Shown: positions 1,721 to 33,483, numbered from the stretch's first letter. The stretch is 64,000 nucleotides of DNA from Alphaproteobacteria bacterium (GCA_045655105.1 JAZOOQ010000056.1:75389-139388), one strand, 5' to 3'. A program made the numbers and translations. The notes: generated by a model not told the origin, from the letters alone.

Positions 1721-1721
1721 T

Positions 1722-3284: not shown

Positions 3285-3294
3285 AAATCACCTG

Positions 3295-6009: not shown

Positions 6010-6100
6010 AACCCTATTTTTTTTGAACGAGGGAAGAAAAGAGAAAATGCTTGCTGCTTTTTCACTTTTTTGTTATAATTTCAAAAAGAGGATGTTGTTC

Positions 6101-6565
6101 ATGAACAATAATGTTGAAAAAAACAATCGCCTAATGAGTTTAACGTATTCAAGTGATGAAGTGAAATCTCTTGAAAAAAAGGCAAAAAAATTGATTGATA
6201 GTTTAACAAATTCATTCGTTTTAGAAGCTAATGAGTTTTTGTTTGAAATGCAAAAATTGCTTCAAGAGGCTTCTGTTGTTGAAAAAAAGGAACGTTCTTT
6301 TATTCTTAAAAATCGTTTTTTTTCACTAGCACATGATTTAAAAGGGCAAGGAACAACTTATGGTTATGATATGATCACGCTTTTATCTGAACATATTTGT
6401 GATTTTATTCGAAGTAAATCCGTTTTTTCTCAAAAAGAAATTGATTTATTTGTTTTAGATGTTGAAGATATGAAAAAAGTATTATCGCAACCACCTCATG
6501 GGCTTTCATCTCGGTTAAAAAAAGAAATTATAAATCGCTTGGAGAAACAAAAATGTCTCAAATAA
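6101..6565 (+). CDS. single-domain histidine phosphotransfer (Hpt) protein
   Basis: SLAHDLKGQGTTYGY matches the Hpt H-x-L-K-G-x-x-x-x-x-G phospho-histidine motif. Start chosen at ATG 6101 (gagg 9 nt upstream). The track ORF begins at an alternative TTG at 6023, so the start is uncertain. The 3' end overlaps the response-regulator start by 13 nt. Confidence 0.6.
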   Translation: MNNNVEKNNRLMSLTYSSDEVKSLEKKAKKLIDSLTNSFVLEANEFLFEMQKLLQEASVVEKKERSFILKNRFFSLAHDLKGQGTTYGYDMITLLSEHICDFIRSKSVFSQKEIDLFVLDVEDMKKVLSQPPHGLSSRLKKEIINRLEKQKCLK

Positions 6566-7233
6566 CGCCACATATTTTAGTTGTTGATGATGATACGCGT
6601 TTAAGAAGGTTGTTGAAAAAATATTTAACCGAAAATGGATTTGTTGTTTCTCAAGCAAGTGGAGCGCAAGAGGCTAAAGAATTATTAAAATTGTTTTCAT
6701 TTTCTATTCTGATTTTAGATATGATGATGCCGGGTCAAAATGGGCAAGAATTAACGCGCGAGTTAAGAGAAAATCAATTTGAAACGCCTATTTTAATGTT
6801 AACGGCAATGGGCGATATTGATAATCGAATTAGTGGCCTTGAAGCAGGCGCTGATGATTATTTATCCAAGCCGTTCGAACCAAAAGAATTGCTCTTGCGA
6901 ATTAATAATATTTTGAAAAGACAAGTTCAACAAGAGATTAGAAAAGAGGTTTGTTTTGGTGATTGTGTGTATGATACAAAAACAAAACAGTTGCTTAAAG
7001 ATGGAAATTTTGTTTTATTAACAAATGTTGAACAAGATTTGTTAAGTGTGTTGGTATCTTCGCTTGGCGAGCCGATTTCAAGGGAAGATATTGCTTTGGC
7101 GTTAAAATCCGATAATTTAAGAGCAATTGATGTTCAAATTACAAGATTAAGACGCAAAATTGAAACAGATATTAAAAAACCGATTTGTATACAAACGGTT
7201 CGAGGAATGGGATATATTTTGGTGCCAAAATGA
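6553..7233 (+). CDS. OmpR-family response regulator
   Basis: 226 aa. Receiver domain (ILVVDDD ... LILDMMMPG ... LTA ... KPF) plus winged-helix C-terminus (VDVQITRLRRKIE ... IQTVRGMGYIL). Confidence 0.9.
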   Translation: MSQITPHILVVDDDTRLRRLLKKYLTENGFVVSQASGAQEAKELLKLFSFSILILDMMMPGQNGQELTRELRENQFETPILMLTAMGDIDNRISGLEAGADDYLSKPFEPKELLLRINNILKRQVQQEIRKEVCFGDCVYDTKTKQLLKDGNFVLLTNVEQDLLSVLVSSLGEPISREDIALALKSDNLRAIDVQITRLRRKIETDIKKPICIQTVRGMGYILVPK

Positions 7234-8627
7234 TTAAAAAAACGCCGTTTATTTTATTAAAAAGATTTTTAATTTGGTGTAGAGATACCTTAAAAGGAAC
7301 AAAAATAAAATTGTTGCCACAAAGTTTATTTTATCGCTTCATTTTGATTATTTTGATGCCACTTATTTTTTTGCAAACAGCAATGTTTTTCTTTTTTTAT
7401 GATAGGCATTGGCAAACTGTAAGTCGAAGATTGGCCACTGATGTTGCAGGTGAAATTCAAATTATTGCTGATTTTGTATCAGATCATGCCTCTCAATCAG
7501 AAATTGATTCTTTTATTAAAACGGCTCAAAATGCGCTTTCTCTTAAAATTGATTTTAGAGAAAATCAATTGATTCCTTTTCAAAGTTTGAATAAAACGGA
7601 TGCCTCGGTTGGTCATTTAACATACGAGCTTAATAATTTAAATTACCCTGTTTATATGAGTGAAGTTGAAAACAAACAATTAAGCGTTATGGTTCAATTA
7701 CCTCGAGGTGTTTTAAGTGTTTTAATTCCACAAAAAAGATTTTATAGTTCAACAGTTTTGGTTTTCTTAGGGTGGACAATTGGTTGTTCTGTTTTATTAT
7801 TTTTAATTGCTTTTTTGTTTATGAAAAATCAGGTTCGATCAATCGAAAAATTGGCCAGAGCTTCCGAGTTGTTTGGTATTGGTCATGATATTGCATTTAA
7901 ACCAACTGGGGCAACAGAAGTGAAACGAGCAGGGTTTGCATTTTTATTGATGAAAGATAGGATTTTAAAATACTTAAGTGAAAGAACAACAATGTTGGCA
8001 GGTGTTTCTCATGATTTAAGAACGCCGCTAACAAGAATGAAATTGCAACTTTCAATGATGCCTAAAGATGAAACAACCATAGATTTAACAGAAGATGTTG
8101 ATGAAATGGAAAAAATGTTAAATGGGTATCTTTCCTTTGCAAGAGGAGAAGGCAAAGAAACAGCTCAATTATTTCAATTAGATGAATTAGTTTCAATGCT
8201 TGTTGAAAAACAAAGAAAAATTGATCAGGATATTTCTCTTCATATTGAAGAAAGTGTTTCGATTACTGGTCGTCTTAATGATTTAACTCGAGCCATAACA
8301 AATATTTTAACTAATGCGGCTCGATATGCTAAAAAAACAAAATTAACACTTGGAATCCGAAATAAAAAAGCATTTTTAATGTTTGATGATAATGGACCTG
8401 GAATTCCAAAAGAAAAAAGAGATGAAGTGTTTCGAGCATTTTATCGTTTGGAATCATCAAGAAATAAAGCAACCGGTGGTATTGGCCTTGGTTTAACGAT
8501 TACCAGAGATATTATTTTATCTCATGGAGGTGAAATTTCCTTGGCAGAAAGCCCATTAGGAGGATTAAGAGTGTTGGTTTATTTACCTCTTTGTGGTCTT
8601 GAAACTCCACAGCCAGAGAGGGAATAA
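7230..8627 (+). CDS. EnvZ-like sensor histidine kinase
   Basis: Two N-terminal TM segments, H-box AGVSHDLRTPLTR, N-box ILTNAARYA, G-boxes DDNGPGIP and GGIGLGLTI. ATG 7230 overlaps the regulator stop (ATGA). The track ORF start at 7185 is rejected. Confidence 0.85.
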   Translation: MIKKTPFILLKRFLIWCRDTLKGTKIKLLPQSLFYRFILIILMPLIFLQTAMFFFFYDRHWQTVSRRLATDVAGEIQIIADFVSDHASQSEIDSFIKTAQNALSLKIDFRENQLIPFQSLNKTDASVGHLTYELNNLNYPVYMSEVENKQLSVMVQLPRGVLSVLIPQKRFYSSTVLVFLGWTIGCSVLLFLIAFLFMKNQVRSIEKLARASELFGIGHDIAFKPTGATEVKRAGFAFLLMKDRILKYLSERTTMLAGVSHDLRTPLTRMKLQLSMMPKDETTIDLTEDVDEMEKMLNGYLSFARGEGKETAQLFQLDELVSMLVEKQRKIDQDISLHIEESVSITGRLNDLTRAITNILTNAARYAKKTKLTLGIRNKKAFLMFDDNGPGIPKEKRDEVFRAFYRLESSRNKATGGIGLGLTITRDIILSHGGEISLAESPLGGLRVLVYLPLCGLETPQPERE

Positions 8628-8691: not shown

Positions 8692-8720
8692 TTGCAACTT
8701 CATTTTCAAAGTTGTAATAT
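8692..8720 (+). promoter_or_regulatory. candidate sigma70-type promoter of the pilus cluster
   Basis: TTGCAA (8692-8697), 17-nt spacer, TAATAT (8715-8720), about 95 nt upstream of the first cluster gene. Confidence 0.35.
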
Positions 8721-8813
8721 GAAATATATTCTGTGGCTTTAAGAGTTTAAAAATAATTCTCTTTTGAGATGGAATAAAGAAAAATATATGTTTTTCAGGG
8801 GGATAGTAAAGAC

Positions 8814-9848
8814 ATGTTTCAACAAAAAATTCTTCTCTTTGTTTGTGCCTTTGGGTTGTTTTCAGCCACTTCTTTTGCTGGTTCGTTTGAAAGTTTGGAA
8901 ATCGCACAAGGTGATGGTGATCCAAGAGAGAGCTCTGTTCAAGAACGATTAATGGATGCTAAAACTTTAGCAGATGAAGATGTTGCCACGGTGACGGCTG
9001 AAGGTGATTTCGTTGTTCCAACGTATTTATTGCAAACGGTGGAAGATGGTGTTGAGGAAAAACCTGTTCAAGTAACAAGAAAGGTGGAAAAAGAGCTTCC
9101 TGTTGTGGTTGTGACTCAAACGGAGATAACTCCTGTATCTGAGCAAATGGATGTTGAAAGAAAATTGACGGGTGGTACAAAACAAACGGAAAAAATTTAT
9201 AGTGAAGCTATTTCACGTAAATCTTCAAAGTCGGTTAAAAAACAACCTGCTGATATTTTGAAGCCAGGAAAAATAAAGGAATCTGTGGTGTCTTCAACTG
9301 ATGATGATATCAATGATATTTTATCGGGTGCTTATGAAACGGAAAAAACTTCGTCGGATAAAAAGCCATTGTTGTTGCCTTTAAAAGGAAATGCGAGTAA
9401 GGTTGGGAAGACTCAAACGAATGAAAGTTTTCCAAAGCCGATGATGAATACGTATTCTTCGGTTTATGCGGATAAAATTATTGAGGCGACAAAAGCAAAT
9501 GAAAAATTGCCTTTGATTATGCCAATGGATTTGAAGGTTTCATTTTATCCAAATGCAACGGATTTTTCTGGTAAAACAATTAAATGGGTAAAAGCTTTTT
9601 CGTATAGAGCATTGCAAGATCCAAGATATGTTGTGCAAGTTCGTTTAAGTAAAGAAAAACCATATTTGCAAGAAAAAAGATTACGTCTTGTTGAAAAGAT
9701 TTTGATGGGGGCGGGTTTGTCAAAACATCAATTGGTTGTTGATTATGTTGAAAGACCAGAAGATAGTCTTGTTTTGAGAATGGTGAAAAAAGAACCGGCT
9801 GTTTCTGTTAAATCGACCGGTAAAGAGAAAAGAGTTATTAATTGGTAA
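8814..9848 (+). CDS. secreted protein, first gene of the type IVb pilus-like cluster (possible degenerate OmpA/MotB-like C-terminus)
   Basis: 344 aa. Signal peptide MFQQKILLFVCAFGLFSATSFAG. C-terminal about 100 aa (KVSFYPNATDFSGKTIKWVKAF ... VVQVRLS ... EKRLRLVEKILMGAGLSKHQLVVDYVE) has the strand/helix spacing of OmpA_C-type domains but lacks the clear peptidoglycan-binding residues. Confidence 0.5.
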   Translation: MFQQKILLFVCAFGLFSATSFAGSFESLEIAQGDGDPRESSVQERLMDAKTLADEDVATVTAEGDFVVPTYLLQTVEDGVEEKPVQVTRKVEKELPVVVVTQTEITPVSEQMDVERKLTGGTKQTEKIYSEAISRKSSKSVKKQPADILKPGKIKESVVSSTDDDINDILSGAYETEKTSSDKKPLLLPLKGNASKVGKTQTNESFPKPMMNTYSSVYADKIIEATKANEKLPLIMPMDLKVSFYPNATDFSGKTIKWVKAFSYRALQDPRYVVQVRLSKEKPYLQEKRLRLVEKILMGAGLSKHQLVVDYVERPEDSLVLRMVKKEPAVSVKSTGKEKRVINW

Positions 9849-9865
9849 TTGGAAAGGGAGTTGAA

Positions 9866-10669
9866 ATGAAACAAATGTTTTTAAAACAAACAATGATTGC
9901 CGGTTTGTTATTCCTTAATGTTGGTATGTTGAGTGGATGTACTTCTTTGGAAGGTGATGGGGAGCAAATGATTGAGCCAGATGTGGCTCACCATGAAGTT
10001 GCCCCTGCTTTTAGTGTTGACGCGGGTATTTGTTCACCAGAAAATCCAAGTGCATGCATTGTTTCATTTGAAGATGCTGATGTAATGTTAGGGCAAGCTC
10101 CGGCTTATGGTCAAATGGCTGTTGCAACAGATTCAGCATATGCAATTCAAATGGCTCCAGTTTCAATTTCTGTTCCAATGATTGAGCAAGGATTGTCAGT
10201 GAAAGAAAAAATTGCTCAAAGAGAACAAGAACAAAAAGATTTGGCGTTGACTCCTGTTGATAATGCCGCAGTTGTTTGCAATGGGGAAGATTGTTCAAAT
10301 CAATTGTTTAAATCAGAAACTCAAAAAGAAGTTCAAACAACAGTAACTGAAGAACAAACATTAAGACCTGTAACATTAAATGATAAAATTGCTTATGGGG
10401 AAGGGAATCATGATTGGGAAGCCAAAGCAGGTGATACAATGAGAGATTTGTTACGCCAATGGGGTGAAGCTTCCGGGTGGACAGTTGTTTGGAAAATTGA
10501 TAGAAATTATCATTTAGAGGCAGGAGTTGTTTTTAGAGGGAGCTTTACTGAAGTTGCTGCCGCGTTTATTCGCTCATTTGCACGAGCAACGCCAGCTCCA
10601 ATCGGAACGTTTTATAAAGGAAATAGAGTGTTGGTCATAAGTTCGCAGGAGAATGAAAATGCTGATTAA
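9866..10669 (+). CDS. PilL-like lipoprotein with TcpQ-type C-terminal domain
   Basis: Lipobox MLSGC. The C-terminus GDTMRDLLRQWGEASGWTVVWKIDRNYHLEAGVVFRGSFTEVAAAFIRSF ... FYKGNRVLVI matches the TcpQ/PilL domain pattern as I remember it. RBS gggag before ATG 9866. 3' end overlaps the secretin gene. Confidence 0.6.
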   Translation: MKQMFLKQTMIAGLLFLNVGMLSGCTSLEGDGEQMIEPDVAHHEVAPAFSVDAGICSPENPSACIVSFEDADVMLGQAPAYGQMAVATDSAYAIQMAPVSISVPMIEQGLSVKEKIAQREQEQKDLALTPVDNAAVVCNGEDCSNQLFKSETQKEVQTTVTEEQTLRPVTLNDKIAYGEGNHDWEAKAGDTMRDLLRQWGEASGWTVVWKIDRNYHLEAGVVFRGSFTEVAAAFIRSFARATPAPIGTFYKGNRVLVISSQENENAD

Positions 10670-12332
10670 ACCCGTCAAATTAATTTTAACAATGGCAGTG
10701 CTTGCAACAAGCTTTTCCTTAACGGCTTGTAATAAGTATGCTGAAAAAACTGATGCAAAGATTGAAACAGTTTTGGAAAGAACGGAAGATTATTTACAAC
10801 AAGCAACTATTCCAGATCTTCCTGAAACAACTGATACTGTTCGAACAAAAGAAGATATTTGGTTGGGAAACACCAGTGTTAAAATTTCACAAGGGGATAG
10901 TTTACCACCAGAAATGGAAGAAGAGGATGCTTTAACGATTACGATATCTGAAGAAGCAAGTTTACCTTTCTTGGCCAATGAAATTTCAGATGCAACGGGT
11001 CTTCATGTTCGTTTAGATAGTTTGAAAGCATCAAAAGAAATTCCTGCTGAAACAATTCCAATTAATTACACTGGTACATTGAGTGGATTGTTAGATTATA
11101 TTGCAAATAGATATGGTGTTTGGTGGCGTTATAAAGATAAGACAATTAGTTTTTACAGCCAAGAAACACGTATTTTTAATATCTATGCCTTGCCTGTTGA
11201 AACAAGCATTTCAAATTCTTTAAGTGGTGCAACAATGGGCAGTTCTGATAACAGTTCATCTAATTCAACTTCAACATTAACTTCTTCAGCAAATTTGGCC
11301 TTATGGGATAATATTGAAAACAGTTTAAACCAAATTGTTGGTGAAGAGGGGCAACTTTCATTTAGCCGTGTTGCTGGTACAGTTACAATTACAGCAAGCC
11401 CATTTATTATTAAAGAAGCAGCCGAATGGATTAATGCCTTTAACCAAAAATTATCTCGTCAAGTTGCAATTTCTGTAAAAGTGTTGCAAGTTTCAGTTTC
11501 AAACCAAGATAATTATGGTTTTGACTTAGGCTTAGTTTTCAATAATGCTGATATTTTAGGAACATTTTCAAGTGCTTATTCTTTAAGTGGTGCAGCAACG
11601 GCTGGAACATTATCAATGATGTTGTTAAAACCTGATTCAAAATGGACGAATTCAAAAGCCATTGTTCAAGCATTCTCAGTTTTGGGTAAAACAGCTTTGG
11701 TAACATCTGCAAGTGCAACAACCTTAAATAATAAAGTTGCACCAATTCAAATTACAACACAAGAAAACTATGTGAAAGAAACAAATGTTTCAACATCTGG
11801 TAGTGGAACAGACCGAAGTGTTGACGTTGATATGGAAACTGATACATTGAATTATGGTTTTATGATGGAAGTTTTGCCAAGAATTTTAAATCACGGGAAT
11901 TTAATTTTAATGTTCTCTTTAAATTTAACAGATTTGGTGTCTTTGAAAAACTTCACATCTACAGGGGCTCAAACAAATGCTGACACATTGGCAAGTGAAA
12001 CATCAGATTCAGATGATAGCGATAAAGATGATGATGAAGAAGATGATGATGATTCAGTTGCTGATGATGCGAATACAGTTGTTCAATTGCCAAAAATTCA
12101 AACGCGTGGATTTATTCAAGAAATTGCAATGCGTTCTGGATCAACGCTTGTTTTGACAGGGTTTGAAAAAGTTCAAGATAGAATGACAACAACTGGTATT
12201 GGCAAAGCAAAAATCGGTATTTTAGGCGGTGGTGCTTTGAATGATAATGTGCGAGATGTTCTTGTTATCTTGTTAACTCCAGAAGTTTTGGAATCACCGC
12301 TTTCTGCAGAATCCCGCATGAGAGATTTTTAA
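10653..12332 (+). CDS. type IVb pilus secretin lipoprotein (PilN in R64 nomenclature)
   Basis: 559 aa. Lipobox SLTAC. Secretin C-domain (VLGKTALVTSASATTLNNKVAPIQI ... TRGFIQEIAMRSGSTLVLTGFE ... DVLVILLTPEVL). The alternative start ATG 10659 is better spaced from aggag. Confidence 0.8.
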   Translation: MKMLIKPVKLILTMAVLATSFSLTACNKYAEKTDAKIETVLERTEDYLQQATIPDLPETTDTVRTKEDIWLGNTSVKISQGDSLPPEMEEEDALTITISEEASLPFLANEISDATGLHVRLDSLKASKEIPAETIPINYTGTLSGLLDYIANRYGVWWRYKDKTISFYSQETRIFNIYALPVETSISNSLSGATMGSSDNSSSNSTSTLTSSANLALWDNIENSLNQIVGEEGQLSFSRVAGTVTITASPFIIKEAAEWINAFNQKLSRQVAISVKVLQVSVSNQDNYGFDLGLVFNNADILGTFSSAYSLSGAATAGTLSMMLLKPDSKWTNSKAIVQAFSVLGKTALVTSASATTLNNKVAPIQITTQENYVKETNVSTSGSGTDRSVDVDMETDTLNYGFMMEVLPRILNHGNLILMFSLNLTDLVSLKNFTSTGAQTNADTLASETSDSDDSDKDDDEEDDDDSVADDANTVVQLPKIQTRGFIQEIAMRSGSTLVLTGFEKVQDRMTTTGIGKAKIGILGGGALNDNVRDVLVILLTPEVLESPLSAESRMRDF

Positions 12333-12345
12333 GGAGTCTTAAAGA

Positions 12346-13713
12346 ATGACAGATGAACGCGATGCCTTAATAGGAACAACAGCGCCAAGCGATATTCAGC
12401 TTTCTCCAACAGAGATGGTTGAGCGGGGAACCGTTGTTATTAAAAAGGTTAAATATGCTGTTGGCTTGATTTGGCAGCCACTTCAAGATCCAGATAATCC
12501 ATCTCCTGAAATCAGAGAGGCTATGGATACGGATGCGGATTCAGATTTATACTGTTTGCGTATCACTGCTTCTCCACAGTATGGTTTGGGTCGCACCTCT
12601 ATGGGGCATCGCACTGGTGAGCTTTCTTTGGCTGCAACAATTGCTTCTGCTTTATCTGATAAAACATCTATTTGTGGTGTTTTTAAAGTTGAAGAAGGAT
12701 GGTATTTTATTGCTGTTAGAAATGACTTGATTTTATCTGAAAATGATGTTCTTTTCAAAACAGAAGAAGAGGCTGAGGCTGCTTTTTATCGCATGATGAG
12801 CGTTCCAGATTGGGATATGAAAATTGTTCCAGCAGAATGGAATGTTGAAGGTGCTGTCACAAGAACAATTGAATCGATTGTTAGGGAATCTCGTGTTCGT
12901 GTTCGCTTAGAAGAATTAGGGGCAAAGAAGAAAAACCAAATTTTATTATTTATTGGTATTGCTCTTGTAATTGCTATAAGCAGTTTTGTTTACTCTATGT
13001 TTACGGTGTTTACACCTGTTATACAACAAGAGGAAAAAATTGAACCAATTTCAATTCCTGAAATTATTAGGCCTGTTGAACCAACACCGGAAAAGCCAAA
13101 ACCTTGGGAAAAAATTCCTGATACAAAAACATTTTTAAATAAATGTTGGAATAACGCTTATCAATTAAAAACACTTAATATTCCTGGTTGGGCTTTAGGG
13201 ATTGTTTCTTGTACTAGCTCTGGGTTAACAACCTCTTGGTCGAGAGGAGATTCTTCAATTTGGTCAAATCCTCCAAGAATTCGTTGGATTAAAGCTGCGC
13301 TGAATGAATATAAAATGACGAATGTGAATATTCAAATCAGCAAAGATGGGGCTTCAGCAAGTGGAAATGTTGCTTTTTATGATATTCCTTTAATTGCTTC
13401 AGTTCCTCTTTACACTGAACAACAATTATGGGAAGAATTAACAGATATTAAACAAGCGATTAATTTATCCATTGAATTTCAACGCAAAACGGTTTTAGAT
13501 CCGCCAGATAATCCTGATGGTTCAAAACCAGAGCATCAACAAGAATATGTTTATTTCATCTTTTCTGTCACCTCGTCCTACACCCCATTTGAATGGTTAA
13601 CATTCTTTAATAAATTCCCGGGTTTAGAATTGACAAAAATAGAATTTAATCCGTTAACAGAACCATCCGATCCGAATAAATGGAAATATGAAGGGAGAAT
13701 CTATGCAAAATAA
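12346..13713 (+). CDS. PilO-like bitopic inner-membrane pilus assembly protein (type IVb)
   Basis: 455 aa. Cytoplasmic N-domain of about 190 aa (VKYAVGLIWQPL ...), one TM (ILLFIGIALVIAISSFVYSMFTVF), periplasmic C-domain. Its position between secretin and PilP-like gene matches the R64/PAPI-1 order. Assigned mainly by context. Confidence 0.5.
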   Translation: MTDERDALIGTTAPSDIQLSPTEMVERGTVVIKKVKYAVGLIWQPLQDPDNPSPEIREAMDTDADSDLYCLRITASPQYGLGRTSMGHRTGELSLAATIASALSDKTSICGVFKVEEGWYFIAVRNDLILSENDVLFKTEEEAEAAFYRMMSVPDWDMKIVPAEWNVEGAVTRTIESIVRESRVRVRLEELGAKKKNQILLFIGIALVIAISSFVYSMFTVFTPVIQQEEKIEPISIPEIIRPVEPTPEKPKPWEKIPDTKTFLNKCWNNAYQLKTLNIPGWALGIVSCTSSGLTTSWSRGDSSIWSNPPRIRWIKAALNEYKMTNVNIQISKDGASASGNVAFYDIPLIASVPLYTEQQLWEELTDIKQAINLSIEFQRKTVLDPPDNPDGSKPEHQQEYVYFIFSVTSSYTPFEWLTFFNKFPGLELTKIEFNPLTEPSDPNKWKYEGRIYAK

Positions 13714-14755
13714 AACATTAATTTTATTAGGGGCATTTGTTTTATCAACAACCTCATTAGTTTCACCAACAATGGCACAAACAGAAGGGGTAAGTAATGA
13801 AGTGGCTGTTGAAGTTAAACAAGAAGGCCAAGCAAATATCCCTGCTGTTGAAAAAACAAAAGCCGTTGATGAGGTAATTGGCGATAATGTGAGTATCAAT
13901 CCAGATAAAATCGTTGATTTCCCTGGTCGTCCCTCATTAGGAAGTATTGAAATGGCAACACTTCCAGGTATTAATGAAACATTAGTGAATGGTCCAGCCC
14001 CAATGGGAGAATCTTTATCTTCAAAAGATATGCCAAGTGAACAGTTATTGGGTCGTATTACAACGGAAGTTTTCCAAGAAATGGCTGATTTAGAAAGAGG
14101 TAACGTCTTTTTAAAATTACAAAGCCAAAAAGAGGAACTTAAAAATAATTTAGAAGCTTTGCGTGCGAAATATAGACAAGCACGTTTAGATGAAATTGCC
14201 AAACGTGAAGATGTTGTTCGTTCCCGTATTAACTGGTGGCAAGAGCAAGAAAACATTCGTATTGAAATGGAAAAGAAAAAGGCTGAAACAGAGGCTATTG
14301 AACAACAAATTGCAGAAGCTGAAGAACTTAGAAACAAACTTAGAACGGAAGCAATGGCAGAAAAAGAAGCAGCAAAAAATATGCCAGCCCCAGTTGTTGA
14401 AGCTACTCCAAAAGAAGAACCAAAACCTGTTGTTGCAGCTCCTGAACCAGCACCTGTTGCTGAATCTGAATTTTCAGGATCAATTGGTCAATCAGCTTCT
14501 TCTCTTTACTCATTACTTGGAGTGAGAGGATTGAAAGGAAGATTAACAGCTCGTCTTGAAAATAAAGAAGATGGAACTGTTTTAAATGTTAAAAAAGGTC
14601 AACGTTTAAAAACAGGGCATAAGATTTTGCGTGTAGATAGAGACTCTGTTCAAATTTCATTTGCTGGAAGAGTTGAAGTGATTTTACTTGCATCACCAAA
14701 AACAATCACAGATGCCTCTTCCGAAACTTCAGAAGAAGTTGTTGAAGTTGAATAA
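13703..14755 (+). CDS. PilP-like periplasmic protein, extended form
   Basis: Signal peptide MQNKTLILLGAFVLSTTSLVSPTMA, coiled-coil segment, Pro-rich linker PAPVVEATPKEEPKPVVAAPEPAPVA. The C-terminal beta domain (LTARLENKEDGTVLNVKKGQRLKTGHKILRVDRDSVQISFAGRVEVI) resembles PilP. ATG 13703 has RBS aagggag and overlaps the upstream stop by 11 nt. Confidence 0.45.
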   Translation: MQNKTLILLGAFVLSTTSLVSPTMAQTEGVSNEVAVEVKQEGQANIPAVEKTKAVDEVIGDNVSINPDKIVDFPGRPSLGSIEMATLPGINETLVNGPAPMGESLSSKDMPSEQLLGRITTEVFQEMADLERGNVFLKLQSQKEELKNNLEALRAKYRQARLDEIAKREDVVRSRINWWQEQENIRIEMEKKKAETEAIEQQIAEAEELRNKLRTEAMAEKEAAKNMPAPVVEATPKEEPKPVVAAPEPAPVAESEFSGSIGQSASSLYSLLGVRGLKGRLTARLENKEDGTVLNVKKGQRLKTGHKILRVDRDSVQISFAGRVEVILLASPKTITDASSETSEEVVEVE

Positions 14756-14802
14756 TAAAAAAAGATTATAAAGAACGTTTAAGTTTGTCAAAAGGGGACA
14801 AA

Positions 14803-17001
14803 ATGAATTTTTGGAATAAAAATGGGACAAGAAATCAGGATGAAGGAATGAGCTCATCATCTAATTTATTGGATGTTTCTGCTATTGATATTCCTGATTC
14901 AGATCAAAATGATCAATATGTGGAAGATGTTTTTTCAAAAACATCTGGTGTATCAACGTCTTTTGATATAGAAGAAGAAATTTCTTCTTCTCCCATAATT
15001 GATCATCCTGCAGCTCCATTTATGGCACCTCCAATTCCAAAAGCCCCTCTTTCTTCCATTCATCAAGAAATAGATATGTCGGTTAACGAATATGATGATT
15101 TGCCAACTTTAGAAGTTGAAGAAGAACTTTCAACTTTAGATAAAGAAGAAGTAGTTGAAGAAAAAATACAAGAGGTTTTTGAAGAACAAGAAATAAAAGT
15201 TGATCCCCAAGAAGTAGAAGGAACTAAAATGGTTCCTGAAAACTCTTTTCCAGATGGTATTGTTCCAATGGCTCAAGCGCCACGTTCTAAAACCTTTGTG
15301 AAACAAGCAGAGCCAGAACTTAGTGTTTCTAAAAAAGATGAAAAAGCAACCAAAGAAGAAGTTAAAGAGGAAAAAACAGTTAGTGAAGATTTGGAATATA
15401 TTCACTATTCAAATCCTTTGTTCTTAAAAAAACTTTTTGCAAATGGGAATACGTGCATCACTGCACCAGGAGCCGCTTTCCAACTTAAAGATGATATGCG
15501 TTCCTTATTGGCATTGTTTTCAAATGGGCGATATTTTGTTGCAGAAACATATAAATATGATGGTAAAGTTTTAAGCTTTGAATATCTGGTTAAAAAGCGC
15601 AATCTCCAAATTGGAAAACCTGAATATGTTCCTATGACGGTGCTTAGCACAATCTATGAATATGCTGCTCAAAACTCTTATGCTGAAGATACAGATGAAG
15701 TTACAGAAAAACCAGACGTTGTTGAACAAGCACAAGCGCGTATGCAACGAGACTTTATTACTATTATTTCTCGTGCTGCAGCAATGCACGTTTCCGATAT
15801 TCATATTGTGGTAGCTGAAAACACCATTGTTATGTTCCGCGTTAATGGTTTGATGCAAACAGAAATGGAATATAAAAAAGAATGGGGTGAAAGCTTTGTT
15901 CGTGCAGCCTTTGCTTCTGCAGATATTTCTGATGCAAACTATGCACAAAACGAATATCAAGCTGCTCAAAAACTTGGACGGACGCCACTTCGTGGTTCTC
16001 ATGGTAAATTAATTTTGCCAAGAAACATCTTGGGTGTTCGTCTTCAATTTAACCCAATTGCTTTCGGTACGCGTTATGTTGTTTTGCGTTTGCTTTATGC
16101 TGAAGAAAGCATGGAATCAGATAGCGCATTAGAATCTCTTGGATTTACGAAAAAAGATACAGAAGATTTTTATAAACTTCGTGGTGAACCAACAGGAATT
16201 ACCATTATTTCAGGGCCAACGGGTTCTGGTAAATCAACAACACTGCAACGAAACATGATTGCAATGTTGCAAGAAAGAAACTATGAAGTAAACTTAATTA
16301 CGGTGGAAGATCCTCCAGAATATCCAATTCCTGGGGCTCGCCAAATGCCAGTTACAAATGCCACCATTGAAGAAGCTAAAGAAAGGGAGTTTACAAAAGC
16401 ATTGGCTGCCGCTCTTCGTTCTGACCCTGACTCTATGATGATCGGGGAAGTTCGTACTCTTTCTGCTGCAGACCTTGCTTTTAGAGCCGCTCTTTCAGGG
16501 CACAACGTGTGGACAACGTTGCACGCTAACAACGCACCATCTATTTTAATTCGTTTAAAAGATATGGGGGTGGAAGAATTTAAATTGAAGGATCCTGAAA
16601 TTATCAAAGGATTAACAGCTCAACGTTTATTTAGACGTCTTTGTCCGCATTGTAGAATTCCTGCAACTGAACGCTTAAGTTTGCCAATTATTGAACGTTT
16701 AAGAACAGGATTTGGAGATATTGCTCTTGAAACAACATATTTAAGAGGTCAAGGTTGTAAACATTGTGACTTTAAAGGGGTTAAAGGCCGTATCGCTGTT
16801 TCTGAAATTATTTTGCCAGATACAACATTCCTTGAATTAATGTTAAAGGGAGATACGGTTAAAGCCATTAACTATTGGATTAATGAATTAAATGGAACAA
16901 CCTTGCGCGAATCGGCTTTAAGACATATGTTTAATGGTATTATTGATATTGGTGAAGTTGAAAGATGGACAGGATTCCTCGATCAAACAATCACGGGTTA
17001 A
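14803..17001 (+). CDS. GspE/PilB-family assembly ATPase (PilQ in R64 nomenclature) with a long acidic N-terminal extension
   Basis: Walker A GPTGSGKST, Asp-box region, Walker B DPDSMMIGEVR, His box GHNVWTTLHAN, tetracysteine CPHC ... CKHC. ATG 14803 preceded by aaagggga. Confidence 0.9.
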   Translation: MNFWNKNGTRNQDEGMSSSSNLLDVSAIDIPDSDQNDQYVEDVFSKTSGVSTSFDIEEEISSSPIIDHPAAPFMAPPIPKAPLSSIHQEIDMSVNEYDDLPTLEVEEELSTLDKEEVVEEKIQEVFEEQEIKVDPQEVEGTKMVPENSFPDGIVPMAQAPRSKTFVKQAEPELSVSKKDEKATKEEVKEEKTVSEDLEYIHYSNPLFLKKLFANGNTCITAPGAAFQLKDDMRSLLALFSNGRYFVAETYKYDGKVLSFEYLVKKRNLQIGKPEYVPMTVLSTIYEYAAQNSYAEDTDEVTEKPDVVEQAQARMQRDFITIISRAAAMHVSDIHIVVAENTIVMFRVNGLMQTEMEYKKEWGESFVRAAFASADISDANYAQNEYQAAQKLGRTPLRGSHGKLILPRNILGVRLQFNPIAFGTRYVVLRLLYAEESMESDSALESLGFTKKDTEDFYKLRGEPTGITIISGPTGSGKSTTLQRNMIAMLQERNYEVNLITVEDPPEYPIPGARQMPVTNATIEEAKEREFTKALAAALRSDPDSMMIGEVRTLSAADLAFRAALSGHNVWTTLHANNAPSILIRLKDMGVEEFKLKDPEIIKGLTAQRLFRRLCPHCRIPATERLSLPIIERLRTGFGDIALETTYLRGQGCKHCDFKGVKGRIAVSEIILPDTTFLELMLKGDTVKAINYWINELNGTTLRESALRHMFNGIIDIGEVERWTGFLDQTITG

Positions 17002-17014
17002 GGAGCAAAGTTAA

Positions 17015-18142
17015 ATGAATAAATCAACGAAAAAGGTAGTTGTTAGACCAGTAAGCAGTTTTGAAATTGCTTTTGCAAAATTTCTGTTTTGCCATTTACC
17101 TTCAAGTAGTTCATCGCGTATTGCTCTTTATAATAAATTAAGATCTCTTCTTAAAAACCGATTTTCATTGATGGATGCATTGGAACGGATTTATCAAATT
17201 GCATCAAAAGATGGAAAAAATCCATATGACACTGATGCTATTGCCATTTCATGTTGGATGAAATCTGTTCGAAATGGGGACCCATTTTCAGTTGCATTAA
17301 AAGGATGGGCTCCAAGCACAGAATTATTAATGCTTTCGGTTGGTGATGTTGCTAATTTGGAATCGGCTCTTGAAAATACGGTTCGCGTTGTTGAAGGTAT
17401 TAAACGGATGAAAAGTGCGGTTATGGGAGCGGTTTTGTATCCACTCTTTTTGATCAGTATGGTATTCTTTTTGATTTGGGGTGTGGGTGCTTTCATGGTG
17501 CCACCAATGGTTGATGCTGTTCCAAATTTAAGATGGACAGGTCTTTCCTTATCTTTGGTTAATCTTTCTATTTTTGTGCAAGAACATCCTCTATTTCTTT
17601 TTGCCACATTACCAATTGCTGTTGTTATAGTAGTTTTTACTTTTCCAAGGTGGAAAAAGGATTCAAGAGCTATTGCTGATAAAATGCCTCCATGGTCAAT
17701 TTACCGCATTTTTATTGGTGTGGGTTGGCTTTTATCTTTATCAGCTCTTGTAAGCGCTGGAACGCCTGTTTCAAAAGCGATGAGAGCTTTGCGCCATGAT
17801 GCTTCACCTTATTTGCTTTATCGCATTGATAGCGCGTTAAAACACGTTAATAACGGTGATAATATTGGTGATGCTCTTTATAAAACAGGGTTGGGTTTCC
17901 CAGATGAAGAAGTTATTGGTGATTTAAGAATTTATTCTGAATTGGATAACTTTACCGAAGCTCTTGAACGTTTATCTGTTGACTGGATGGAAGATTCCAT
18001 TAATGATGTTGCCACTAAAGCTGGTGCTTTAAATGGTTTGGCTATTTTAATGATTGCTGCCGTTATTTGTTGGGTTGTTGCAGGTACATTTGATATGCAA
18101 GAACAAATGGTTAATGGCATGGGTTTGGGAGCAGGGCGATAG
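17015..18142 (+). CDS. GspF/PilC-family inner-membrane platform protein (PilR in R64 nomenclature)
   Basis: 375 aa. Two repeats of the T2SS-F-type helical domain separated by TM segments (three hydrophobic helices). Immediately follows the ATPase. Confidence 0.8.
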   Translation: MNKSTKKVVVRPVSSFEIAFAKFLFCHLPSSSSSRIALYNKLRSLLKNRFSLMDALERIYQIASKDGKNPYDTDAIAISCWMKSVRNGDPFSVALKGWAPSTELLMLSVGDVANLESALENTVRVVEGIKRMKSAVMGAVLYPLFLISMVFFLIWGVGAFMVPPMVDAVPNLRWTGLSLSLVNLSIFVQEHPLFLFATLPIAVVIVVFTFPRWKKDSRAIADKMPPWSIYRIFIGVGWLLSLSALVSAGTPVSKAMRALRHDASPYLLYRIDSALKHVNNGDNIGDALYKTGLGFPDEEVIGDLRIYSELDNFTEALERLSVDWMEDSINDVATKAGALNGLAILMIAAVICWVVAGTFDMQEQMVNGMGLGAGR

Positions 18143-18168
18143 TTCATTATTCCTTAAAAGAAATAAAA

Positions 18169-18196
18169 AAAGGGGGGGCAATCCTCCTTTTTTTTA
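18169..18196 (+). terminator. rho-independent terminator ending the pilus cluster
   Basis: aaaggggg (18169-18176) pairs with cctccttt (18183-18190) with one G-T wobble, then a T-run to 18196. Confidence 0.6.
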
Positions 18197-18213
18197 TAGA
18201 TAAGCTAAAATAA

Positions 18214-18237
18214 TACCCCCTGTGTTCGCAGGGGGTA
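18214..18237 (-). terminator. terminator hairpin downstream of glyQS
   Basis: Perfect 9-bp stem taccccctg / cagggggta with a 6-nt loop. On the minus strand it is followed by a T-rich tract. Confidence 0.6.
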
Positions 18238-18243
18238 AGCTAT

Positions 18244-19608
18244 TTAAATGAAATATTCTTTTAAAAGATTTGGCAATTCTTCTAATGAAACGCGTTTTTG
18301 TTCCATTGTATCTCTATCGCGAATGGTAACAGTTGTTGGACTTTGTTCAATACTTTCAAAGTCAACAGTGATACAAAATGGAGTTCCAATTTCATCATGA
18401 CGACGATAAGCTTTTCCAATGTTGCCAGAATCTTCAAGCATAACGCGACCAATGCCTGTTTTTAAAAGAGTGTTTTTAATATTGCGGGCCATTTCCATAA
18501 TTTGTGGATTATTGCGTTTAAGTGGAATAACGGCAGCTTTAACTGGTGCTAAATGTTTTTTAAGTTTTAAAACCGTTCTTGTTTCACCATTTGGTAAAGT
18601 TTCTTCCGTGTATGCTTCAGTTAAAACAGCTAAAACACCACGTTCAACACCTGCAGATGGTTCAACAACAAATGGAACATACCATTTTTTTGTTTCATCA
18701 TCAAAAAGAGCGAGTTTTGTGTTGCTTTCTTTGTTTTCATGAGGTGTTGCTGTTAATTCTAATTCAGATTGGTATCTTGTATGATTGCCAAGATCATAGT
18801 CTGTTCTATCAGCAATACCTTCTAATTCTTCTAATCCATGTGGGAATTCATATTCCAAATCATAAGTTGCTTTAGAATAGTGGGCTAATTCTTCTTTTTC
18901 AATGGCATGAACTTTTAATTTATCTTTATCAAGACCTTGATCTAACCACCATTGAATGCGGGTATCTTTCCATGTTTCAAGCCATTGTTCATCAGTTCCT
19001 GGTTTAACAAAATATTCAAGTTCCATTTGTTCAAATTCACGCACACGGAAAATAAAGTTACGTGGCGTAATTTCATTACGGAATGATTTACCAATTTGAG
19101 CAATTCCAAAAGGGGCTTTTCTGGCCGTTGAATCAACAACATTTTTAAATTGCGTGAAAATTGCTTGAGCTGTTTCAGGGCGCAAATAGGCAAAGTTTGA
19201 ACCATCTTCAATTGGACCAACTGTTGTTTTAAACATTAAGTTAAACATTCTTGGTTCGGTTAATTCTGTTGAACCACAATTAGGGCATTTCCCATCTTTA
19301 ATATGGTCAGCTCTAAAGCGATTTTTGCATTTTTTGCAATCAGTTAATGGGTCTGTAAATGTTGATTCATGTCCACTGTAATGCAAAACTTTTTGATGTG
19401 TTAAAATAGAAGAATCTAATCCTTCAATATCATCGCGTTCATAAATCATTGAACGCCACCAAGCTGCTTTTAAATTATTTTTGAGTTCAACGCCTAAAGG
19501 ACCAAAATCATAAACCCCTTGTAAACCGCCATAAATATCGGCATTTTGAAAAATAAATCCTCGTCTTTTACAAAGTGAAACCAATTGGTCCATTGATGTT
19601 GCTGGCAT
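18244..19608 (-). CDS. glyQS: glycine--tRNA ligase, homodimeric (alpha2) type
   Basis: 454 aa. [43 protein letters not shown] is near-identical in pattern to Thermus-type GlyRS. Class II motifs present. Confidence 0.9.
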
Positions 19609-19688: not shown

Positions 19689-20474
19689 TTACTTAAATTT
19701 TTGAGAAAGCCAATTATTCAAAATTATTTCTAATTCTTTTTTGTTTTCGTCGGAGCGAAAAGTATGTGTTCCATTTTTAATGATATGAAGTTCTTTATCT
19801 GATTTTAGTTTTGAAAAAAGATCTTCATTTATTTCTTTTGTTGATGAAATATCACGATCGCCCGCAATAATTAAAGTGGGGCAGGTAATATGCTGAGCCA
19901 ACGTTTCAAGTTGATACTTTTGAGCATCATGAATATGATCAAAACTAATATATCCATTCACGTGTGGATTTTTTTCTTTTTCTTTATAGAGATATTTTTC
20001 TTGTTTCCATTTTAAAACAAAATCAGGTTTTGTTTTTTTATAAGAATCTAAAAGTTTGTTCCCATTATAAACAGGAGCAAGGCAAATAATTCCTTTAAAG
20101 AGGGATGGTTCTTTTATGGCCTGAAATAAAACAGCTCCAGCCCCTAAAGAATGCCCAAGAGCGAAAAATGGTTCTTGATAAAAATTTTGTTTTTTAGCCC
20201 AGTTTAAAATGACTTCAAAATCTTGGATGAAGTTTGAAAAACAAGCGTTTTTAAGATTGCCATCCGATTCGCCAAATGAATGTCTTGCATCGTAAAGACA
20301 AACGGCTAATCCTTTGTTTAAAAAGATGTCAGCGCATTTTAAAAGATAGTCTTCTTCTTTAAAGCCCGCTAATCCATGCAAAATAAAAACAAGCCCTAAT
20401 GCATCTTGTTTAGGGGTTAAAAGTTGCGCAATAATGTTTTCTTTTTGGAGTGTTGGGATAATAAATTTTTGCAT
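19689..20474 (-). CDS. alpha/beta-fold hydrolase (lysophospholipase/esterase-like)
   Basis: 261 aa. HG oxyanion region VFILHGLAG, nucleophile elbow GHSLGAG, C-terminal GTHTF (catalytic His). Confidence 0.7.
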   Translation of the reverse strand: MQKFIIPTLQKENIIAQLLTPKQDALGLVFILHGLAGFKEEDYLLKCADIFLNKGLAVCLYDARHSFGESDGNLKNACFSNFIQDFEVILNWAKKQNFYQEPFFALGHSLGAGAVLFQAIKEPSLFKGIICLAPVYNGNKLLDSYKKTKPDFVLKWKQEKYLYKEKEKNPHVNGYISFDHIHDAQKYQLETLAQHITCPTLIIAGDRDISSTKEINEDLFSKLKSDKELHIIKNGTHTFRSDENKKELEIILNNWLSQKFK

Positions 20475-20486
20475 TTAATTAAATAT

Positions 20487-20516
20487 AAAAAAACGGGGTT
20501 TCCCCCGTTTTTTTTG
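20487..20516 (-). terminator. bidirectional-looking rho-independent terminator
   Basis: cgggg (20494-20498) pairs with ccccg (20503-20507) around a 4-nt loop, flanked by an A-run and a T-run. Separates the small gene at 20521 from the hydrolase gene. Confidence 0.6.
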
Positions 20517-20520
20517 TTTG

Positions 20521-20853
20521 TTATTTAGGTCTTTTTGCAGATAAATGATAAACACCTGTTTCTGGATTGAGTGTATATGTTTCAATTCCCCATCTATCCC
20601 AAACAACTTCAAAAGAAGATGGTGTGATATTTTGAATTCGACCTTGGTCTGGTCCATTTTTACGACGAGCACGATTTGCTTCAAGTGGAACGAGCTCATC
20701 TCTCCAAGCTGGATGTTGAACTGTTACGGCTTTTGTAAAGTTCACATCTGAACTTGTTCCTGGTAAACTATCAAACAATGCATTGTTTGAATAATATGCA
20801 ACACCGGCTGTCAACCCACCCAAAACGACTAAAAATAATAAAAATTTTTTCAT
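20521..20853 (-). CDS. small N-terminally anchored/secreted protein, unknown function
   Basis: ATG at 20853 (MKKFLLFLVVLGGLTAGVAYYS ...) preceded by aggaga. The longer track ORF (to 20991) runs through a poly-A/T tract and is rejected. Confidence 0.5.
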   Translation of the reverse strand: MKKFLLFLVVLGGLTAGVAYYSNNALFDSLPGTSSDVNFTKAVTVQHPAWRDELVPLEANRARRKNGPDQGRIQNITPSSFEVVWDRWGIETYTLNPETGVYHLSAKRPK

Positions 20854-20951
20854 TTTTTCTCTCCTTCTATTTCTATTCTTATTTTTATGTATCAAAAAAA
20901 AAATAAAAAAACAACAAAAAAAATTAAAAAAATTAAAAATTTTTAAAAAAA

Positions 20952-21338
20952 TTAAAATGATAGCGGAAATGAGGTTTGGATTATTCCACAATCCATTTGA
21001 TAAAGATTGTTTTTTTCTTTAGATTTTCCATCTGTTTGCTTCTTAAATTTATTAAAAAGAGCATCAGGAGTATCTGTAAATGATTGGCATTGGCTAAAAT
21101 TTAAAAGAATTGTTTCTTCTTTTTGTTCATAAGTTTGATCACTTGAAAAAGAAAATTCTTGTGGAGTTTTAAAATTATAATCGATTGGGATTGTTAAATT
21201 AAGTGAGGGCCTGAAATAATTAATTTTAGATATTTCTTGTTTTTGAAGAGGTGTTTGTTGCATAACAGGTTTTTCTTTAAAAAAAGAAAAAATTAACAAA
21301 CCAAGTAAAATAATAAGAAGAATTAAAATTTTTTTCAT
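20952..21338 (-). CDS. small secreted protein, unknown function
   Basis: 128 aa. Signal/anchor MKKILILLIILLGLLIFSFF. No recognisable motif. Confidence 0.45.
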   Translation of the reverse strand: MKKILILLIILLGLLIFSFFKEKPVMQQTPLQKQEISKINYFRPSLNLTIPIDYNFKTPQEFSFSSDQTYEQKEETILLNFSQCQSFTDTPDALFNKFKKQTDGKSKEKNNLYQMDCGIIQTSFPLSF

Positions 21339-21374
21339 AAGAAAAATTATACTTTAAAAAAAAGATTTTTCAAA

Positions 21375-21403
21375 TAAAAAAGAGGGAAAGTCCCTCTTTT
21401 TTA
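21375..21403 (-). terminator. rho-independent terminator after the orphan operon
   Basis: agaggga (21381-21387) pairs with tccctct (21391-21397), flanked by A- and T-runs. Overlaps the stop codon at 21401. Confidence 0.55.
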
Positions 21404-22063
21404 TTTTGTTCGTTGAAGTGTTTTTAAGGCTTCATATAAGGCTTTTTGAACTGAAACAGGAAGTCTTGCGGCTCCAGATTTTATTTCATGTGGTGTTAAT
21501 TTTTTGCCGCTTTCAATCCAGCTATTCAAAATGGTATTTGAATTTAAAAACAATTCATTTACTTTATTAATTTGTTTATGTGCTGTTACAACATTTGTAT
21601 ATTTTCTTTTTTCATAAGCTGTACAAGCAAAGTTTTTTTCAATAGCAGGAGTAACAATGGCTCCCAATTGAATGGCTTTTGCATATAAAACAGGATTAAT
21701 TGAGCACTTTGAAATTAATTCAAGAATTGTTTCTCCAATGGGTTCATTTTCTGAGTTGTTTGTTTTTGCTTGGCATTTCATATCAATTGATTGAAGGTGA
21801 ATCAATTGAGGTGTTTTTTTGATTTTTTGGCTAAAACGCGTTAAATAAAATTGAATATGCGATTCGGCTCGTTGATAGGCAAGTTTTTTATCTTCAATAT
21901 AAGGTAATAAATTAACGTTTTCTGCAATTTCAGAAAGCATTCCTAATATATTTTCCGAATCTTGTGAAGCTAATTCTCTTGATTTTTCAATTTCATAATC
22001 AGTGAGCGATTCGTGATTCGCATTTTTTAATAATAATTCTTTGATTTCATTATTTTCTTTCAT
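21401..22063 (-). CDS. hypothetical soluble protein (orphan operon, gene 3)
   Basis: 220-aa ORF with no signal peptide or TM segment and no motif I recognise. 16-nt gap to the upstream gene. Confidence 0.55.
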   Translation of the reverse strand: MKENNEIKELLLKNANHESLTDYEIEKSRELASQDSENILGMLSEIAENVNLLPYIEDKKLAYQRAESHIQFYLTRFSQKIKKTPQLIHLQSIDMKCQAKTNNSENEPIGETILELISKCSINPVLYAKAIQLGAIVTPAIEKNFACTAYEKRKYTNVVTAHKQINKVNELFLNSNTILNSWIESGKKLTPHEIKSGAARLPVSVQKALYEALKTLQRTK

Positions 22064-22079
22064 TATTTTATCCTTTTAA

Positions 22080-22475: not shown

Positions 22476-22476
22476 T

Positions 22477-33415: not shown

Positions 33416-33483
33416 AAATTTGTTGACAAAAAATTGATTTTTTGTTATTATACTCCTCATATCATCTTTATGAGGAGTTTTTT

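Follow-up and report, generated by a model that had tools for sequence, protein, structure and literature searches.

The best-known type IVb (T4b) pili are colonisation factors in enteric Gammaproteobacteria, such as the toxin-coregulated pilus (TCP), the bundle-forming pilus (BFP) and CFA/III, and aids to conjugation, as in R64. A block of seven genes on the plus strand (8814-18142) of the stretch analysed here, 64 kb of DNA from an Alphaproteobacteria bacterium (GCA_045655105.1, JAZOOQ010000056.1:75389-139388; hereafter the window; guanine-plus-cytosine (GC) content about 32%), resembles the secretin, ATPase and platform part of such a system and includes no gene for a pilin, a prepilin peptidase or conjugation, raising the question of what this block assembles and whether it is a resident trait of its host. 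Our comparisons make it quite likely that the block codes for an assembly machine that spans the envelope and builds an R64-variant T4b pilus, and that low-GC Alphaproteobacteria of one gut clade keep this machine as a stable trait on the chromosome. The comparative data strongly favour a domesticated T4b machine with pilins encoded in trans, so that the first of the two alternatives offered by a first-pass annotation of the sequence was largely right. The locus would represent a vertically inherited T4b lineage under purifying selection in an uncultured clade from animal guts, and would widen the taxonomic reach of these pili: according to a 2019 survey, they had been described before only from Gammaproteobacteria, to which that survey added only Acidithiobacillia and Nitrospirae (PMC6668835).

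Gene order, protein families and conservation of the block

The open reading frame (ORF) listing agreed with the first-pass annotation in giving seven co-directional, tightly packed genes with overlaps at 10653-10669 and 13703-13713 (Table 1), the latter obtained with the conserved MQNK start of the fifth gene (listed as 13688/13703-14755). Gaps between the other genes of the block are at most 29 nt. The gap before the first gene, 186 nt long, holds both of the sigma-70-like matches, and the two terminators that had been described as facing glyQS, the gene for a dimeric glycine-tRNA ligase opposite the 3' end of the block, were recovered as terminator-like hairpins, one on each strand.

Five of the seven family labels proposed in the first pass were upheld by Pfam and NCBIfam profiles, and predicted structure with Foldseek searches upheld that of the PilP-like protein and assigned a family to the first protein (P1), which had been labelled only as secreted; the identities of the components were established in this way, and the roles given below are those of the named families. 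Specifically, the PilL-like lipoprotein, whose true start is probably the ATG at 9866, scored 62 bits against PF10671 (cutoff 27), carries the lipobox LSGC and is 24-36% identical to plasmid TcpQ-family proteins. The secretin passed the Secretin model PF00263, carries the lipobox LTAC, has the T4b PilN model TIGR02520 as by far its best match (5e-77) and is 25-29% identical to plasmid PilN proteins. In the fourth protein, residues 38-454 cover positions 2-419 of the 419 in PF06864 (PAP_PilO), and its tblastn matches on plasmids of Bosea, Salmonella and Methylovorus carry the label 'type 4b pilus protein PilO2'. PilO2 as defined by PF06864 is a specific marker of the R64 variant, and the fold of the family includes a cytoplasmic actin-like domain in common with BfpC (PMC3984277). 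The PilQ-like ATPase (34-40% identical to plasmid T4b ATPases) has an acidic N-terminal extension of about 300 residues and a readable CxxC...CxxC motif, with GspE (TIGR02533, 1.5e-70) and PilB as its best NCBIfam models, and the PilR-like platform protein is 31-35% identical to plasmid homologues.

Neither P1 nor the PilP-like protein gave a significant match in Pfam or NCBIfam (E up to 1), in PDB profile searches or by hhalign against the plasmid proteins. P1 has a signal peptide readable in its sequence, none of its 98 homologues contains a Pfam domain, and it is encoded by the first gene in every block copy examined. In an AlphaFold model built from 35 sequences, its C-terminal domain reached a predicted local distance difference test (pLDDT) score of about 90 and matched the peptidoglycan-associated domains of Pal, MotB and OmpA-like proteins (Foldseek, E 3e-6 to 1e-3); P1 is taken here as a clade-specific machine component. 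The C-terminal beta domain of the PilP-like protein was modelled confidently and matched best the PilP structures of T4a machines (3jc8_Pa, 4e-4; also 2lc4, 2ivw and 2y4y) as well as the homology region (HR) of GspC/PulC (3oss_C; template modelling score 0.84, root-mean-square deviation 1.2 Å). Its homologues bear the name PilP at NCBI and JGI, and one of them (P0311, 51% identical) reached the R64-type model TIGR03021 (pilP_fam) with 35.0 against a cutoff of 34.65. All accessory proteins therefore came through the check suggested for the first-pass interpretation, profile or structural similarity to PilL, PilO and PilP, by the TcpQ and PAP_PilO profiles and the OmpA-like and PilP/GspC-HR structural matches.

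Of the marks of the R64-variant core, PilO2 (PF06864), a TcpQ lipoprotein beside the secretin, a PilP beta domain, and GspE- and GspF-family proteins in the operon are present in the window; for the PilN-family lipoprotein secretin, the best model is the right one and a lipobox is there, but the score lies under the equivalog cutoff. Those of a full R64 system are missing from it: a long-leader pilin within the operon, an A24-family PilU, and PilV with shufflon and Rci on a conjugative element. Nor does the window fit a type IVa (T4a) system, as it contains no PilM, PilN, PilO (PF04350), PilQ or PilT, and its pilin has a globular domain of the PilS/Bundlin type, only the leader length being T4a-like.

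Using the PilO-like protein as the query, we found 12 related loci (L001-L012; L-numbers denote the related loci compared), 97% to 50% identical, all from metagenome-assembled genomes (MAGs) that are labelled Alphaproteobacteria and come from animal guts, including those of sheep, yak and roe deer; the source of the window is an uncultured low-GC gut alphaproteobacterium. All of L001-L012 contain the seven-gene block, in full wherever the contig is long enough, as do five more loci from metagenomes (L029-L033), and in all of these it stops at the platform gene and has ordinary chromosomal flanks; altogether, the block was found in more than 20 loci from MAGs of gut Alphaproteobacteria, each time in a chromosomal setting. 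It can be described as a distant member of the R64-variant T4b family, cut off after the platform gene. The ratios of nonsynonymous to synonymous substitution rates (dN/dS), calculated against two close relatives, were 0.04-0.18 for the seven machine genes and both pilin genes of the window, and the housekeeping neighbourhood was unchanged across several species-level MAGs. This strong purifying selection, together with the conserved block and chromosomal flanks, argues that the block is, as far as sequences can tell, a functional, vertically inherited trait and not a decaying island.

Pfam scans of all window ORFs of at least 110 aa found no A24 peptidase, PilV or shufflon, relaxase, type IV secretion system (T4SS) protein or integrase in the 64 kb, and no second T2SSE or T2SSF protein. 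The neighbours of the block are housekeeping genes, and the only tRNA gene of the window is distant, at 60.6 kb. Both the absence of pilin, peptidase and conjugation genes from the block and its chromosomal context, as first described, thus held, the latter also by synteny in related genomes.

Pilins of the window and the dispersed G|RSMVEM family

Exactly two prepilin-like genes with the signature G|RSMVEM (cleavage after Gly) are present in the window, both on the minus strand. The larger product belongs to the PilS family: it has 175 database homologues, PF08805 was found in almost all of the 120 listed, and more distant homologues of about 200 residues carry both the PilS and the Bundlin domains. 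In two of the related loci, L025 and L028, which represent a sister lineage, distant homologues with the same N-terminus (…EQSGRSMVEMLGVLAIIGVLS) and SGRSMVEM are encoded directly behind the platform gene of the homologous block, and for this reason the G|RSMVEM pilins are, on the evidence of gene order, regarded as cognate subunits of this machine family. The dN/dS of the larger pilin gene was about 0.1. Clear orthologues of the small pilin were limited to L034 (89%) and L035 (68%), with a dN/dS of 0.075, and its N-terminus is common to hundreds of paralogues; it likely belongs to a dispersed family of small pilins and is probably a further substrate of the machine. The first-pass annotation had described distant pilins with short, T4a-like leaders. 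The leaders are indeed short, but the proteins are of the T4b family, and the larger one, of the PilS/Bundlin type, is the orthologue of the machine-adjacent pilins of the sister lineage.

An R64-type pilin, with a leader of 15-30 residues, would be encoded within the operon, whereas the gene for the PilS-family pilin of the window lies on the opposite strand at a distance of 13.5 kb and specifies a leader of 10 residues. Part of this distance can be traced to a rearrangement. In the closer relatives L019, L020 and L022, the orthologous pilin gene is co-oriented with the machine and lies about 7 kb downstream of it, with dtd, murA, comM and rnd in between. Relative to these, a segment of about 21 kb from glyQS to dtd (18244-39257 in the window) is inverted, with a breakpoint directly after the platform gene, and L001 shows the same inversion as the window. 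As a result, glyQS adjoins the platform gene and the pilin gene lies 13.5 kb off on the minus strand. A search for repeats at the breakpoints gave only AT-rich or Shine-Dalgarno-like chance matches. The separation of the pilin is, therefore, partly a local accident, an inversion of about 21 kb superimposed on an ancestral spacing of 7 kb; the pilin genes were probably once contiguous with the machine and dispersed later.

The dispersal goes much further in relatives. When species-representative genomes were scanned for SGRSMVEM, more than 597 matches came up, at least 562 of which were confirmed, and the best 80 of these matches were all from gut MAGs, 79 labelled Alphaproteobacteria. JAZQXL01, a genome with the same machine, contains at least 18 copies, including an array of eight genes, and another genome at least 14. 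Seventeen paralogues from JAZQXL01 were 92% identical over the first 40 residues and 41% identical beyond, with a four-cysteine frame retained. The mature proteins are mostly 120-160 residues long, about one-sixth having 250-510 residues, and C-terminal domains of 300-500 residues occur in some. Family loci noted in passing include L104 (eight tandem copies), L066, L089, L093, L097 and 70 others. In L033, a prepilin-like G|RSMVEM protein of at least 389 aa is encoded directly after the platform gene (20060-21226, plus strand), the position of PilV in some plasmid systems. In the library searched, no paper contained the GRSMVEM motif and nothing specific turned up on pili of this clade. One tentative idea, which we hold to be possible and no stronger than that, is that the machine, uncoupled from a single pilin gene, is shared as an assembly or export platform by a diversifying G|RSMVEM repertoire spread over the genome; the idea derives from the relatives, the window itself having only two such genes. 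If it is true, it would point to pilus-based surface variation or adhesin display, and a lone VirB2/TrbC-like protein encoded in some relatives (Table 1) might be a further partner. In either case, SGRSMVEM is a simple marker with which these pilins can be mined.

Table 1. Features of the window and, in the last row, of related loci
Feature	Position	Strand	Basis
P1, secreted; disordered N-terminal half, C-terminal OmpA-C/Pal/MotB-like domain	8814-9848	+	AlphaFold 2, Foldseek
PilL-like lipoprotein, C-terminal TcpQ domain (secretin partner)	9842-10669	+	PF10671 4e-17, residues 191-268
PilN-type lipoprotein secretin with acidic insert, outer-membrane channel	10653-12332	+	Secretin PF00263 2e-9; TIGR02520
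PilO2, bitopic: cytoplasmic actin-like domain, one transmembrane helix, periplasmic domain	12346-13713	+	PF06864 9e-32
PilP-like: signal peptide, coiled coil of ~100 residues, C-terminal PilP/GspC-HR beta domain (secretin N0 binder)	13703-14755	+	AlphaFold 2, Foldseek
PilQ-like assembly ATPase (GspE/PilB family)	14785-17001	+	T2SSE 2e-69, residues 318-727
PilR-like inner-membrane platform (GspF family)	17015-18142	+	T2SSF 1e-23, two stretches
PilS-family (T4b) prepilin: 10-residue leader, G|RSMVEM, 153-residue mature part	31645-32136	-	PilS_N PF08805 1e-11; Bundlin 4e-5
Second, small prepilin: 7-residue leader, G|RSMVEM, 127-residue mature part	52592-52996	-	N_methyl/TIGR02532
Two sigma-70-like promoter matches	8703-8792	+	Consensus scan, 9/12 each; weak evidence
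Terminator-like hairpin and T-run closing the putative operon	18172-18195	+	Hairpin scan
Terminator-like hairpin of convergent glyQS	18214-18237	-	Hairpin scan
Single-domain histidine phosphotransfer (Hpt)-like protein, first gene of module	6023-6565	+	CheA P1/Hpt domains in PDB, 1e-4 (profile)
OmpR-family response regulator	6553-7233	+	Response_reg 2e-30; Trans_reg_C 1e-15
EnvZ-like non-hybrid sensor histidine kinase	7185-8627	+	HisKA and HATPase_c
TrbC/VirB2-like genes of relatives	L011 5532-5888; L012 1306-1656; L029 9434-9784; L030 9368-9733 (strand as given for these four); also L031, L032, L033	-	

Comparison with known systems and alternative readings

The R64/IncI1 thin pilus and the clusters on the plasmids Bosea pBSY19_1 and Methylovorus pMsip01 and on a Salmonella plasmid share the core order TcpQ-PilN-PilO2-PilP-ATPase-platform with the window, although the proteins of these R64-type clusters are only 22-40% identical to those of the window. 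Both groups have a PilS-family pilin, that of the window differing in its location, its short leader and the Arg at +1. In pMsip01, a gene annotated 'OmpA family protein' precedes that for TcpQ, the position of P1 in the window. The three plasmid clusters run on past the platform gene to a pilin, a PilT-like ATPase and PilV, where the operon of the window stops, and the Salmonella cluster has an A24 peptidase and a lytic transglycosylase upstream of the pilin. Compared with R64, the window operon lacks PilM, the PilT-type lytic transglycosylase, PilU, PilV with its shufflon and a second ATPase, is chromosomal without conjugation genes, and encodes a PilP-like protein with a long coiled coil and an ATPase with the acidic extension.

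Some of these absences have precedents. Tfp7 of Burkholderia pseudomallei and the PAPI-1 pilus of Pseudomonas aeruginosa are, like the window system, of the R64 variant without a cluster-encoded pilU; the Tfp7 operon is chromosomal, conserved across the genus and has TcpQ instead of PilL (PMC3984277). The premise of the first-pass annotation, that the block in characterised relatives continues into pilS, pilU and pilV inside conjugative elements, was therefore too strong. In addition, the T4b peptidase is treated as a 'loner' in TXSScan, and peptidases are exchangeable between systems (PMC6668835). Given these cases, the missing peptidase and conjugation genes are an already known kind of absence, and the novelty lies in the pilins, which are detached, scattered and amplified, in the taxon and in the accessory set. 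Tfp7 and PAPI-1 keep pilS, pilV and pilM in the operon, with pilT2 nearby, whereas all pilins of the window lie outside it and the pilin family of its relatives is greatly expanded and scattered. T4b pilin genes are normally in the middle of the locus (PMC6668835). Detached pilins, massively duplicated in relatives, are thus contrary to the usual arrangement of one self-contained T4b operon, and annotation pipelines that demand a pilin and a peptidase in the locus will miss systems of this kind. Parts particular to the lineage would be the OmpA-like first component, the coiled-coil PilP, the ATPase with its acidic extension, control of the Hpt/OmpR/EnvZ type, and a pilin signature composed of a short leader and the invariant G|RSMVEM.

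A closely related cluster is that of the sister lineage in gut MAGs (L025 and L028, the latter from GCA_045538005.1), also chromosomal, in which all seven proteins have homologues (ATPase 62%, platform 51%, secretin 36-38% and PilO 30-32% identical) encoded in the order P1-like, TcpQ, secretin, PilO, PilP-like, ATPase and platform, followed by a PilS-like protein, the major pilin and a PilT-like ATPase. These extra genes (L025 9270-11762, L028 9326-11720) are not attached to the block in the lineage of the window. The sister lineage has a higher GC content, and its PilS-like protein has a plain transmembrane anchor without G|xxxxE. A PilT-like ATPase is attached to the block only there, a related ATPase being encoded beside a pilin in L051 (605-2065).

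In the reading that we prefer, an R64-variant T4b assembly machine, prepilins whose signal is of class III (leader-G|RSMVEM...) would be inserted into the inner membrane and cut after Gly by an A24 peptidase encoded elsewhere. The PilQ-like ATPase would drive the PilR-like platform, which would lift the pilins from the membrane into the growing filament. PilO2 and the coiled-coil PilP-like protein would form an alignment complex, the HR domain of the latter docking on the PilN secretin, which the TcpQ-domain PilL would stabilise, and P1 would probably tie the complex to peptidoglycan. The larger window pilin is the main candidate for the filament subunit, probably joined by the small pilin and by paralogues elsewhere in the genome. 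The likely role would be adhesion and colonisation in the animal gut, making the system a candidate for host attachment in a gut lineage that is poorly understood. TCP of Vibrio cholerae and BFP of enteropathogenic Escherichia coli, which have a gut colonisation role, share with the window a TcpQ-type secretin partner, a BfpC/PilO2-type protein and the Bundlin/PilS fold family (PMC3984277); they differ in that each forms one self-contained operon, peptidase included (TcpJ, BfpP), and in having long-leader pilins and other accessory proteins.

Several observations weigh against this reading. The secretin scored 259.5 bits with TIGR02520, below the equivalog cutoff of 287.65. The short leaders of the window pilins (10 and seven residues) and their Arg at +1 are atypical for T4b pilins, and prepilins other than the main candidate are also eligible as the major subunit. 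That 8814-18142 is one operon is deduced from gene spacing and terminator-like motifs. The window encodes no retraction ATPase, PilV-like tip adhesin or PF01478 peptidase among its ORFs of at least 110 aa, and a scan of 1.3 Mb of related loci for the A24 motif and transmembrane segments recovered only the Salmonella plasmid gene and one in L049, none coming from the closest relatives. Finally, the clade is uncultured and known from MAGs only. As to the peptidase, the L049 gene (5304-6050, plus strand; PF01478 3e-17) has yqeY-dnaG-rpoD as neighbours and a pilin gene at a distance of about 5 kb; it belongs to the MAG of L012 and is on a different contig from the pil operon there. An unlinked A24 peptidase thus exists in one or more members of the wider clade. 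Used as a query against genome contigs, the L049 peptidase matched only itself.

The second alternative of the first-pass annotation, a device resembling a type II secretion system (T2SS), in which the G|RSMVEM proteins would form a short periplasmic pseudopilus pushing folded proteins through the secretin, would explain the missing retraction ATPase and tip adhesin and is consistent with the best score of the ATPase, against GspE, and with the best superposition of the PilP-like domain, on the HR of GspC; the T4b pili TCP and CFA/III are also established exporters of soluble proteins. The gene content, however, gave this alternative no support, for the window has no GspL, GspM, GspC with a PDZ domain or gspG-K pseudopilin operon, and encodes instead PilO2 with a TcpQ partner, hallmarks of T4b systems, beside a PilN-type secretin. 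The conserved pilin belongs to the PilS/Bundlin family of filament-forming pilins, and the PilT-like ATPase beside the pilin in the sister lineage implies an extended, retractile fibre. We regard the T2SS-like device as unlikely.

The closest annotated relatives of the block are on plasmids, some of them conjugative, and the block might accordingly be a remnant of the thin-pilus operon of an integrated conjugative element or plasmid, either stabilising mating pairs for a T4SS encoded elsewhere or decaying. A lone TrbC/VirB2-family gene (116-123 residues), without other T4SS genes near, lies divergently upstream of P1 in L011, L012 and L029-L033, mirroring the divergent trb/pil arrangement of pMsip01, and this resemblance makes an old plasmid origin of the machine plausible. 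A similar gene is found among rpsB/tsf and next to a pilin gene in a genome of the family to which the window belongs (L082 731-1147, plus strand; PF04956 8e-11), but the subclade of the window lacks it upstream of P1, and tblastn found none in the window. The lack of a relaxase, coupling protein, any other T4SS gene, integrase, PilV/shufflon or Rci in the 64 kb and a housekeeping neighbourhood kept across species-level MAGs argue against a conjugative remnant, and the strong purifying selection against decay, leaving this explanation quite improbable. A pilus for DNA uptake is very improbable: a comM-like gene lies between machine and pilin in the ancestral arrangement, but such genes are widespread in non-competent bacteria, the window has no comEA, comEC or dprA, and T4b systems are without a known role in competence, which has been assigned to Com and some T4a pili (PMC6668835).

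The upstream module and neighbouring genes

The Hpt-OmpR-EnvZ unit that the first-pass annotation had placed before the block was recovered by profile matches. The best NCBIfam models for the response regulator and the histidine kinase were OmpR (4e-63) and EnvZ (3e-56), respectively, both under the cutoff, and the motif HDxKGQGxTxG was invariant in eight orthologues of the Hpt-like protein. A small gene precedes the regulator and kinase genes beside the block in L001-L009, L030, L032 and L033, its identity as Hpt having been checked in eight lineages. Since Hpt proteins normally serve hybrid kinases, it is odd to find one standing alone beside an OmpR-type regulator and an EnvZ-like kinase that is not a hybrid. 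The module would likely exert transcriptional control over the machine operon.

Considered by composition, the cluster was a candidate genomic island, with 35-38% GC against 30-32% just upstream, but the housekeeping stretch murA-comM is similar (36-38%) and the candidate was rejected. In L001, the relative that is 97% identical, a 998-aa gene (16281-19277, plus strand) is inserted between the platform gene and glyQS; as a pilus part it was ruled out, since it encodes an extra autotransporter. The comM-like gene (Mg_chelatase/ChlI) is at 34760-36268 on the minus strand, and its place between machine and pilin in the ancestral order may be a coincidence.

Other genes of the window include those for an autotransporter, an ankyrin-repeat protein and a nucleoside transporter, which suggest a host-associated lifestyle. 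The first two, of 1478 aa (26114-30550, plus strand) and 437 aa (33442-34755, plus strand), are near the larger pilin gene and are candidate host-interaction genes. At their 5' ends, the autotransporter and pilin genes (26111-26140 and 32122-32151) share a similar stretch of about 30 nt (TATGTGGGGGCAA...TGAAGA), which probably reflects a strong GGGGG ribosome-binding site and similar first codons and could be a shared control element. On the minus strand at 20521-23394, five ORFs in a row (156, 128, 220, 131 and 305 aa) have no Pfam match, and no counterparts were seen in the related loci that were compared; they may encode lineage-specific secreted or effector-like proteins. Near the left end of the window (761-3864, minus strand), three genes encode an ATP-grasp protein (ATPgrasp_ST/RimK-like), an inactive transglutaminase fused to a seven-transmembrane domain and a putative zinc protease (PF05618), and this trio is also kept upstream of the locus in relatives.

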